A stretch of DNA of 64,000 nucleotides from the IMG/VR virus record IMGVR_UViG_3300032319_000846, positions 1 to 64,000 of that record; one strand, given 5' to 3'. Both the position numbers and the translations under genes were made by a program. The DNA comes from a virus (lineage: Duplodnaviria; Caudoviricetes). Under the pieces are notes generated by a model, which saw nothing but the letters and a program-made list of their open reading frames with translations, was not told the origin of the DNA and searched no databases. Positions 28,885 to 30,732 of this stretch are shown in pieces (position 1 is the first letter of the stretch; every line of letters begins with the position of its first letter).

Positions 28885-29472
28885 ATGAAGTTTTTTAATA
28901 CAATTGGTTCAGACCCAGAGTTTGTAGTGATAGGTAAAGCTCCTGTTTCTATGGTAGGAATTGTAGGAGGAACAAAAGAACATCCACAACCAATTCAAAT
29001 TGATGGATGCTGTTGTTTAACAGATAATGTGTTGGTAGAATTTACAATTCCAGCATGTAATAATTTTAGTTCTGTTAAGAGTTACATTGACAGATGTGTT
29101 ACATTAACACAAACAGAATTACAAAAAATCAATCCTGAATGGGAACTACATGCAATTAGCAGTGTAGAATTTCCTGAATCAGAATTACAATCAGAGCAAG
29201 CTCAAACTTTTGGATGCGAGCGTAGTAATAACATCTATGCTTCTAATGGATTGAGTGATTTGATTACACCACAAGAAGTAGGTAATTTCAGGAGTTTAGG
29301 ACTACATACCCATCACGGATGGATTGATATTCCAAGTGAAGAAGAGTTAAAAGACTTCATATTTTTATGTGATTTATTCTTAGGAATTCCTTCATATATT
29401 TATGATAAAGATAGATTTAGGAGAGGCTTTTACGGGAAAATTGGTGAGCACAGAATAAAAAAAGAGTATGGT
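28885..29472 (+). CDS. phiEco32-like COOH-NH2 ligase type 2, exon 1
   Basis: TIGSDPEF, DNVLVEF, FGC, RSLGLHTHHG, RR.FYGK.G..R.K.YG; interrupted after GGT at 29472. Confidence 0.9.
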
Positions 29473-30516
29473 AAACTAACTAAAAACACTATATAATTAA
29501 TTAGTATTTTTTGTAAAATGTGTGTATTTTTGTATATAACTAAATATACAAAAAATGGAATTAGAACAGCAAGTAATTGAATGTCTTTTAAGAAAAGAAA
29601 CTATTTATTCTATAGCTAAAAAATTTAACAAAAGTCAAGAATTTGTTAGAAAAAGAGCTAAAGATAATAACATAGAAACTCTATCTTTTAAAGATATGGT
29701 AAAAAATAGAAGAATTGTCAGTGTTAATCCTTTTCTTGATTTAGATAATGAGCAGGTTCAATATTGGTTGGGTTTTTTAGCAGCAGATAGAGCAATCCAT
29801 GAAGGGAAGATTTCATTAGGTTTACAAGAACAAGATGAAATTCATATTGATAAATTCATAAAATTTATCAATCCTAAACTAAAAAAGACAAAACTTTTAG
29901 AACATAAGAAATATATTTCTTATAGGACTTCTTTTAGAAATCAAGAAATTTGTGATTATCTAAATCAATTAGGTATAACTTCTAAAAAGAGTTTTACACT
30001 TTTCTATAATCATTCTTTTAATAAACACTTTCTTAGAGGCGTAATTGATGGAGATGGTTATATAAGAAAATCTCACGGAGAAGTAAGTATAGCTACAGGT
30101 TCTATTTTATTTGCTGAACAAATTCAAAAATTTATTATAGATAATTACAGTGTAAATTGTACAATTAGAAAAGATAATTCTAACATATACACTGTAGGAG
30201 TTTATGGTAAAACACAGGTTACAAAAATATTAAATGATTTATATATTGATGCAGAAATTTATCTGGAAAGAAAATTTCTTAATGCCATGTCTCATAGAAA
30301 TATGGGAGCACAAACACCTTAAATTCAGGGAAACAGCATCAGCAATCCTGAGCAAAACTCATATTAAAAAGGAGAATTACTAAAGAAAAAATGTGGTTAG
30401 TAATTTGTTGATTTTTTAAGTTAGAGGATGTGCAACGACTATAATAGGTGCATCTTAACAGTATGTTTATATAGCTGAAGATGAAGGGATAGTCTGAACA
30501 GGAGAGAACCTGTTTG
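29473..30516 (+). mobile_element. group I self-splicing intron (IA-like) with a homing endonuclease ORF in L1
   Basis: The 5' exon TATGGT pairs with IGS GCCATG (30284-30289, U.G at the splice site). P2 CTCATA-GAAA-TATGGG; P3 CACCT/AGGTG; P4 TTCAGG/CCTGAG; P7 GACTA (30437)/TAGTC (30490); P9 AACAGG/CCTGTT; terminal G 30516. Splicing restores EYG|VEYRSL in frame. Confidence 0.92.
29555..30322 (+). CDS. intron-encoded LAGLIDADG homing endonuclease
   Basis: N-terminal HTH; YWLGFLAADRAI and FLRGVIDGDGYI motifs; YLERK end; the 3' end overlaps the IGS/P2/P3. Confidence 0.9.
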   Translation: MELEQQVIECLLRKETIYSIAKKFNKSQEFVRKRAKDNNIETLSFKDMVKNRRIVSVNPFLDLDNEQVQYWLGFLAADRAIHEGKISLGLQEQDEIHIDKFIKFINPKLKKTKLLEHKKYISYRTSFRNQEICDYLNQLGITSKKSFTLFYNHSFNKHFLRGVIDGDGYIRKSHGEVSIATGSILFAEQIQKFIIDNYSVNCTIRKDNSNIYTVGVYGKTQVTKILNDLYIDAEIYLERKFLNAMSHRNMGAQTP

Positions 30517-30732
30517 GTAGAATATAGGAGTTTAGGAGCAGGTATGTATCATTTTCCTAAAATAATTCAACAAGGGCTTAATAATATTAAACTTGCAATT
30601 GAATCTAATAAAATAGAAGAATTGAAAACGCTTTATTTTGAAACAATGAAACATATTTCGTTTACAAATAATTTATCTGTAGCACACGCAAAAAAATTAA
30701 ACAAAGAAATTATAAAAGATTTAACCAATTAA
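30517..30732 (+). CDS. COOH-NH2 ligase type 2, exon 2
   Basis: Begins VEYRSLG, the conserved (G)VEYR(T/S)L motif; spliced product 267 aa. Confidence 0.88.
   Translation, partial: VEYRSLGAGMYHFPKIIQQGLNNIKLAIESNKIEELKTLYFETMKHISFTNNLSVAHAKKLNKEIIKDLTN

Follow-up and report, generated by a model that had tools for sequence, protein, structure and literature searches.

How many genes lie between positions 28885 and 30732 of a 64,000-nucleotide (nt) stretch of a caudoviricete virus genome (hereafter, the window; positions 1 to 64,000 of IMG/VR record IMGVR_UViG_3300032319_000846, Duplodnaviria)? A program-made list gives three open reading frames (ORFs) there, one of 203 residues at 28885–29496, one of 255 residues at 29555–30322, and one at 30514–30732 in the frame of VEYRSLG. 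An earlier note on this DNA, written without database searches, read the first and third as a single 267-residue gene for a COOH-NH2 ligase, split by a 1044-nt group I intron in which the second, a LAGLIDADG homing endonuclease gene, is carried. We compared the locus with intronless homologues, with Rfam models, and with related introns from IMG/VR, and we conclude that it very probably contains a functional group I intron with exactly these boundaries. The coordinates of the note needed no correction: the intron spans 29473–30516, U29472 being the last base of the upstream exon and G30516 the last base of the intron. Features described here lie on the plus strand unless stated otherwise.

The interrupted ligase gene

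Removal of the 1044 nt joins exon 1 (28885–29472; 196 codons, ending ...KKEYG) in frame to exon 2 (30517–30732; 71 codons and a stop, beginning VEYRSLG) and restores one 267-residue ligase. The joined exons read GAGTATGGT/GTAGAATAT, that is, ...KKEYG/VEYRSLG... (the slash marks the splice junction throughout), with no residue lost or gained. Across the 5′ boundary the sequence is GAG TAT GGT/AAACTAAC (29464–29480), and across the 3′ boundary it is CCTGTTTG/GTA GAA TAT AGG (30509–30528). Without splicing, the exon-1 frame runs 8 codons into the insert and is closed by a TAA at 29494–29496, giving the truncated 203-residue product of the ORF list.

Comparison with homologues identified the two exons as parts of one protein. 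Exon 1 matched PHROG 3815, 'COOH.NH2 ligase' (phrog_3815; E = 4.3e-32, profile positions 7–196 of 268); exon 2 alone had no PHROG match, and the equivalent exon of a related intron-bearing locus, L174, did match. Among 5.8 billion proteins searched there were full-length homologues, 261–309 residues long, with PF14395. The closest of these, the intronless 265-residue protein P0002, shows 82% identity to exon 1 (P0002 residues 1–192) and 78% to exon 2 (P0002 residues 196–264). The joined ligase is collinear over its full length with the PF14395/phrog_3815 homologues (phiEco32-like COOH-NH2 ligase type 2). In the multiple alignment exon 1 stops at YG, the column that follows is the first of exon 2 (VEYR), and seven intronless proteins (P0002, P0004, P0005, P0007, and P0009–P0011) cross the join without a gap.

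Intronless alleles, for which the note had proposed a search, proved plentiful. None of 11 IMG/VR and 80 metagenome loci that encode homologues has an insert at the junction, and 88 of the 91 run uninterrupted across YG/VEYR, the other three being L023, which meets an earlier stop, and L026 and L041, which lack 20 nt. In all 88 intronless loci G196, E198, and R200 are invariant and position 195 is aromatic; L202 is kept in 82. The invariance of G, E, and R in the motif [YF]G/xE[YCF]R, together with the presence of the ligase gene in 296 cultured-phage records, bears out the suggestion that the site is conserved and widespread. A blastn search of cultured phages with the whole gene returned no match. 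A cultured crAss-like phage, Cellulophaga phage phi14:2, encodes an intact 272-residue ligase (g039) that reads ...KDYGVECRSLG... across the join, in a neighbourhood of Sak4, primase, GGCT, ATP-grasp, COOH.NH2 ligase, amidotransferase, and amidoligase genes. The window shares with it the downstream GGCT and ATP-grasp genes (PHROG matches) and, by our reading of the sequence, an upstream primase-like ORF. The host of the window's intron is a phage of ~138 kb that probably infects Bacteroidota.

A compact ribozyme core with a distant guide sequence

The 3′ 240 nt of the intron form a group I core. When positions 30270–30530 were searched alone, RF00028 (Intron_gpI) matched 30277–30514 over the full length of the model (40.0 bits, E = 4e-9). 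We assigned the helices by inspection and folding. The internal guide sequence GCCAUGU (30284–30290) pairs with the exon end GUAUGGU (29466–29472) in a P1 of 6–7 base pairs (bp), 7 bp as drawn, in which U29472·G30284 is the splice-site wobble pair. The guide sequence lies 811 nt from the 5′ splice site, in agreement with the ~810 nt given in the earlier note, and the intervening loop, L1, is filled by the endonuclease gene.

Downstream of the guide sequence, folding placed a P2 hairpin with a GAAA tetraloop at 30290–30307. P3 is formed by CACCU (30315–30319) and AGGUG (30446–30450). P4 (30324–30330 with 30346–30352) encloses a very small P5 and was located from the Rfam match and from alignments. 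P6 (30358–30360 with 30424–30426) is extended by a long P6a (30375–30383 with 30397–30405). P7, the guanosine-binding helix, pairs GACUA (30437–30441) with UAGUC (30490–30494), forms a pseudoknot with P3, and is invariant in the family described below. The P8 hairpin (30451–30483; 30451–30456 with 30478–30483) is followed by the joining segment J8/7 (AAGGGA), which together with the 3′ strand of P7 occupies 30484–30494 and agrees with the Rfam consensus GAUAUAGUC. The P9 hairpin (AACAGG/CCUGUU in this case denoting its two strands; 30497–30514) was drawn by folding, and the intron ends in a terminal guanosine (omega G, 30516), as do seven relatives whose exons we joined in frame.

A P1 could also be drawn locally, with the exon end GUAUGGU paired to ACUAUAU (29488–29494) only 16 nt into the intron and the endonuclease ORF placed between P1 and P2. 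The resulting 7-bp hairpin is the minimum-energy fold of 29460–29500, but it is worth only −3 kcal/mol (z −0.88), 31 of 200 shuffled sequences fold equally well, and its splice-site pair would be A-U in place of the canonical U·G. By our reading no equivalent pairing exists in L174, and in all 10 family members examined it is the distal guide sequence that changes in step with the exon end. We rejected the hairpin at 29466–29494 on the grounds of its weak fold and its absence from L174, and we regard a local P1 as highly improbable.

Placement of the core in subgroup IA2, which is typical of T-even introns, was also considered and rejected. Only UAAU (30442–30445) lies between P7 and the 3′ strand of P3, and with four bases at this place the P7.1/P7.2 hairpins of that subgroup are absent; the core is therefore not IA2. 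In its P7 region it resembles compact group I cores that our pattern searches met next to tRNA-like sequence. In those loci (L012–L014, L018, L019, and L022, found with a P4 pattern) a compact group I core is followed by GGTTCGA(A/G)TCC-like sequence, which suggests that they may be introns in phage tRNA genes; a 2014 review noted that phage introns had until then been observed in protein-coding genes only (PMC3984707).

Homologous introns and covariation

Relatives of the intron were gathered from IMG/VR with a sequence pattern taken from P7, J7/3, and J8/7, which returned at least 114 stretches. About 10 of these share the core (up to 82% identity) and, by BLAST, have a homologous LAGLIDADG ORF immediately 5′ of it. 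When the structure drawn by hand was placed on an 11-sequence MAFFT alignment, 97% of cells were paired, compared with 32–49% when the 3′ partners were slid, and 15 pairs were altered on both sides. P3 (100% paired, compensatory changes in 5 of 5 pairs), P6 (100% paired, 3 of 3 pairs covarying), P6a (covarying among the window, L174, L191, and L161), and P8 (91–94% paired in this and the larger alignment below, with compensatory changes) all covary, and P4 is nearly invariant. In four of five measures none of 500 shuffles reached the observed value; for the remaining one, further pair types, 15 of 500 did so.

A covariance model built from this alignment (R1) scored the window core at 170 bits, found no second copy within the window, and recovered 30 other cores (31 matches including the window) at E ≤ 1e-10 in the first IMG/VR locus set, with more in later sets. 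Among 26 distinct sequences 86% of cells were paired (99% in P3) and 29 pairs were altered on both sides, including all seven pairs of P2, and P2, P3, P4, P6, and P8 together held 218 doubly changed cells where 72 were expected. MAFFT misaligned P2 and P9, and P9 was still only 47% paired after fitting to the model; P9 is therefore based on each sequence's own hairpin, every relative having a self-complementary sequence of its own at this position.

The guide sequence covaries with the exon as well. In 10 of 10 members the bases immediately 5′ of P2 pair with the last bases of the upstream exon, 369–993 nt away, and the splice-site U·G is always present. The guide elements (GCCAUGU, GCCG, GCUC, GCCA, GCCAC, GCCACU, GCUCUC, and GCCAUA) pair with exon ends of UGGU-, CGGU-, or GAGU-type, with compensatory differences in P1 at positions −3 to −6 across the ten members. 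An L1 ORF that ends within the guide sequence, P2, and P3 is thus a heritable architecture of the family.

Exons of seven relatives could be joined in frame, and all were long and open, with host genes assigned by PHROG. L174 interrupts a COOH.NH2 ligase at the same site as the window (HG/VEYR) and L191 (3456–5622, minus strand) a COOH.NH2 ligase at a second site (DGVAGE/FNIPP). L150 (2449–4972) lies in the other amidoligase of the cassette (phrog_2443), L161 in a gene for a Sak4-like protein, and L107, L137, and L205 at motif A of PolA (L107 and L205 by PHROG, L137 by exon sequence).

These data bear on the possibility that there is no intron, and that a free-standing homing endonuclease gene was inserted into a ligase which is now made as two polypeptides. 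Free-standing endonucleases are common in phages, and by the ORF list the downstream piece could start at a TTG (30514), yet a conserved, covarying group I core of 240 nt sits exactly between the endonuclease ORF and exon 2, the boundaries obey both the U·G pair and the terminal G rule, and an invariant motif is restored without the loss or addition of a residue. We give such a split gene next to no weight. Chance resemblance to an intron can be excluded because of the Rfam core match (E = 4e-9), the covariation in homologous cores, and the exact restoration of the invariant motif.

One further feature of the family concerns the P6a loop (30384–30396 in the window), where the window, L174, L191, L222, and L223 all keep the sequence (A)GAAAAAAUGUGG on a stem that covaries completely. 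A loop kept so constant may make a tertiary contact, for which the GAAA loop of P2 is a possible partner.

The endonuclease gene and its expression

The 255-residue ORF in L1 (29555–30322) matches PF14528 (29.2 bits, cut-off 22.5) and phrog_4645 (E = 2.3e-38). By inspection it has two LAGLIDADG motifs, LGFLAADRA and LRGVIDGDGY, each with its acidic residue kept, as in the monomeric double-motif type; in an alignment with an intein endonuclease domain both fall on the pair of motifs present there. Among named proteins, those most similar to it are an 'intron-encoded endonuclease' of the crAss-like phage cr6_1 (31% identity) and the I-MsaII-type enzymes of Staphylococcus phages (27%). Searching IMG/VR with just the protein sequence of the endonuclease brought up no relatives; these came to light only through the RNA sequence pattern. 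The ORF ends in a TAA at 30320–30322, its last 13 codons being at once the guide sequence, P2, and the 5′ strand of P3. This double use of the final codons had been pointed out in the earlier note, and the related introns have the same layout, with a homologous endonuclease directly 5′ of the core.

We read 29473–30516 as a mobile group I intron in a COOH-NH2 ligase gene (PF14395), and we infer from the sequence that it splices and that its endonuclease is active. In the pre-mRNA P1 would form between the exon end and the guide sequence 811 nt downstream, the compact core from P2 to P9 (30290–30514) would fold, and an external guanosine would attack after U29472. The freed exon 1 would then attack after G30516, producing an mRNA for the 267-residue ligase (...EYG-VEYRSL...). 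In co-infecting phages the endonuclease presumably cuts intronless alleles at the invariant [YF]G/xE[YCF]R, whereupon repair would copy the intron in.

A ribosome translating to the end of the endonuclease ORF would unfold P1–P3, and we therefore propose that most of the endonuclease comes from a transcript of its own, begun at an intron-internal TAnnTTTG. Such a transcript, having no 5′ exon, would neither need to splice nor be able to do so. The candidate promoter is TATTTTTG (29525–29532), a putative Bacteroidota-type −7 element that lies 22 nt 5′ of the endonuclease start codon. Eight of 10 family members have TAnnTTTG 17–24 nt ahead of this ATG, against a background of 0.00085 per position. 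A count that tells against a promoter is that of the whole window, in which TAnnTTTG is not enriched (93 found, 119 expected from shuffles), so that our claim is drawn from the position of the element. A hairpin at 29527–29554 holds the TTTG of the candidate promoter in its 5′ arm, and its 3′ arm ends just 5′ of the ATG; it folds at −8.1 kcal/mol (z −2.6), only 2 of 200 shuffles fold equally well, and short hairpins of a similar kind were seen in the sequences of relatives. In full read-through pre-mRNA this hairpin would mask the start region of the endonuclease, and promoter and hairpin could act together in controlling endonuclease expression. The principle of controlled ORF expression has been stated for bacterial introns with ORFs that reach into the core (PMC3984707).

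Is the intron functional?

Several observations weigh against a working intron of this kind. The RF00028 score of 40 bits is below the gathering threshold of 50 bits, which is a curation cut-off and not a biological feature. The intron was missed when the whole window was searched with Rfam at the gathering threshold, as well as by an E-value-mode Rfam search of 1.4 kb and by an RF00028 search of its own genome, presumably because the core is short and A+T-rich. Only the isolated core gave a match. P5 is vestigial, P1 comprises only 4 bp in several relatives, and P10 is weak by our reading of the sequence (2 + 4 bp with an internal loop). As to the covariation, the relatives were chosen by the P7/J8-7 pattern, which makes those columns uninformative, and the alignment of 26 sequences was fitted to model R1.

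The low Rfam score and the minimal P5 would also fit a decayed intron that no longer splices, in which case the ligase would be a pseudogene or a truncated 203-residue product and the endonuclease would persist as selfish DNA; one relative, L223, has indeed a shortened endonuclease remnant. In the window, however, all core helices are intact, with a score of 170 bits against the family model; the two exons are open and 78–82% identical to an intronless homologue, and the endonuclease ORF is whole with both motifs. Exon 2 in particular would not have stayed open and conserved if it were never expressed. We consider decay quite improbable, and a functional group I intron remains the reading that we very much favour. 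Whether splicing gates the whole ligase pathway, as the earlier note had wondered, is a matter of speculation; the genes downstream of the ligase have start codons of their own.

Occupation of the ligase site and of other genes

A pattern that combined J8/7 and P7 with GTNGARTAYMG, the exon sequence that follows the site, found five more IMG/VR stretches, all of which are R1 matches at 113–162 bits. L221 is similar to L174 and occupies the same ligase site; L222, L224, and L225 are one lineage at that site, with an endonuclease 47% identical to that of the window; and L223, also at that site, retains only the endonuclease remnant. L223 lies on the contig of L150 (UViG_3300009692_000028), such that both ligase genes of one phage bear introns. 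The ligase exons of L221–L225 are ~29–35% identical to those of the window, and their introns at the shared site may reflect either long residence there or movement between distant alleles.

The earlier note had called a COOH-NH2 ligase an unusual host gene. The literature searched contained no paper on a group I intron in such a gene, the sole paper that deals with both an amidoligase and a group I intron treating them separately. The ligase is not a one-off host, since the same intron family occupies the site in at least three other IMG/VR lineages (L174/L221; L222/L224/L225; L223) and a second site in this gene family.

Some close or divergent ligase alleles show other irregularities. In two divergent metagenomic alleles (L026:1640–1670 and L041:570–600) exactly 20 nt are missing across the insertion site (FR[xxxYGx]EYR), which shifts the frame by +1, the downstream frame still being open. 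Apart from the missing segment, L041 does not differ from the intact L043 (L043:3158–3320), in which the 20 nt are flanked on either side by an 8-nt TTTAGAAT repeat. The deletions could be due to slippage, to removal of the endonuclease site once it had been cut, or to faulty assembly. At L023:1750–1773 (P0006, 79% identical to exon 1) the protein reads ...RFAG+E and then meets a stop, two codons after GGT and before the contig end, at a place where the rest of the family has G[FY]H[LI]H. P0003, 83% identical to exon 1, ends ...FYGK+NLVNTYF and a stop. These early ends suggest further insertion sites (introns), or else frameshifts, in the ligase genes of close relatives.

Elsewhere in its own genome, outside the window, the phage has a second LAGLIDADG paralogue (102540–103124, minus strand; 33% identity) and a weak partial R1 match limited to the P4–P6 region (135915–135989, minus strand; 20 bits). 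There was no Rfam group I match near either place, and a second intron is not established.

Taken together, these distributions allow a broader reading that we put forward tentatively, as possible rather than probable: an undescribed radiation of group I introns in Bacteroidota phages, whose LAGLIDADG gene always lies in the P1 loop and ends within the guide sequence, P2, and P3. Translation of the endonuclease and folding of P1–P3 would then be mutually exclusive on one RNA and would be divided between two transcripts by a TAnnTTTG promoter set in a hairpin. Such introns would have repeatedly colonised the amide-ligase cassette (the COOH-NH2 ligase at two sites at least, probably three or four, and the second amidoligase) as well as Sak4 and PolA. 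If this is true, an accessory biosynthetic cassette is a hot-spot for introns.

For annotation, the immediate consequence is that two ORF fragments are one gene for a 267-residue enzyme, in a locus that Rfam at its gathering threshold and a search of the phage's own genome both missed. The intron also marks [YF]G/xE[YCF]R as the most constrained stretch of the ligase, and it adds an accessory-metabolism gene to a short list of phage intron hosts made up mainly of polymerase, ribonucleotide reductase, terminase, and structural genes. With an L1 endonuclease gene that overlaps the guide sequence, the R1 family offers a natural system for studying how translation and ribozyme folding are kept apart.

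Comparison with known introns

One of the closest known systems is the td intron of phage T4, whose enzyme, I-TevI, is of the GIY-YIG type; its ORF lies in P6a, and the ribozyme belongs to subgroup IA2 and has P7.1/P7.2. Both are phage group I introns that interrupt a protein gene at a conserved motif and carry a homing endonuclease. In td the ORF is expressed apart from the pre-mRNA, which spares the folding of the ribozyme; a comparable separation in the window is what the candidate promoter would provide. The window differs in having a LAGLIDADG enzyme, an ORF that runs in L1 through the guide sequence, P2, and P3, and 4 nt between P7 and the 3′ strand of P3, and it interrupts an amide ligase gene, not one of nucleotide metabolism.

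More generally, phages are well known to carry group I introns with homing endonucleases in conserved genes, and ORFs that reach into the core have been described (PMC3984707). The LAGLIDADG enzymes of Staphylococcus phages (I-MsaII, in the rec gene of MSA6) belong to the same family as that of the window, with 27% identity over ~88% of the protein, and likewise interrupt a phage gene; the comparison is by endonuclease only, and the host phylum and the host gene are different. In Bastillevirinae, according to the parts of the study considered here, cores are broken by a long nuclease-encoding loop, conserved ribozyme elements overlap nuclease genes, and such loops leave a ribozyme signature on one side only (PMC11878797). 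Those introns differ from the present one in their Bacillus hosts, in being mostly IA-like with mostly HNH nucleases, and in host genes that include DNA polymerase (phrog_17), as far as these parts of the study describe them (PMC11878797).

LAGLIDADG-bearing group I introns are known in crAss-like phages (Crassvirales) as well. The passages of Yutin et al. 2021 (PMC7886860) that we drew upon name MCP, PolB, primase, ATP_43b, and RNAP as hosts, with ligases not among them, and describe introns found by protein domains, with no RNA structures given there. The window's ligase cassette is syntenic with that of the crAss-like Cellulophaga phage phi14:2, and the best cultured or reference match of its endonuclease is gp43 of cr6_1, likewise a Bacteroidota phage (31% identity). 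In cr6_1 (L215, NC_055894.1 59159–61118) gp43 stands between gp44 and gp42, two gene halves with an identical annotation note that are listed as individual genes, and the end of gp43 overlaps GCCG and a GAAA-capped P2 hairpin, with a weak R1 match (22 bits, E = 1e-4). The L1 architecture described here is thus probably present in a published genome. Set beside these systems, the window's element is a mobile intron of a known type that leaves the known principles of group I intron mobility unchanged; its host gene is one not reported in the literature searched, and its L1 architecture is moderately unusual but heritable.

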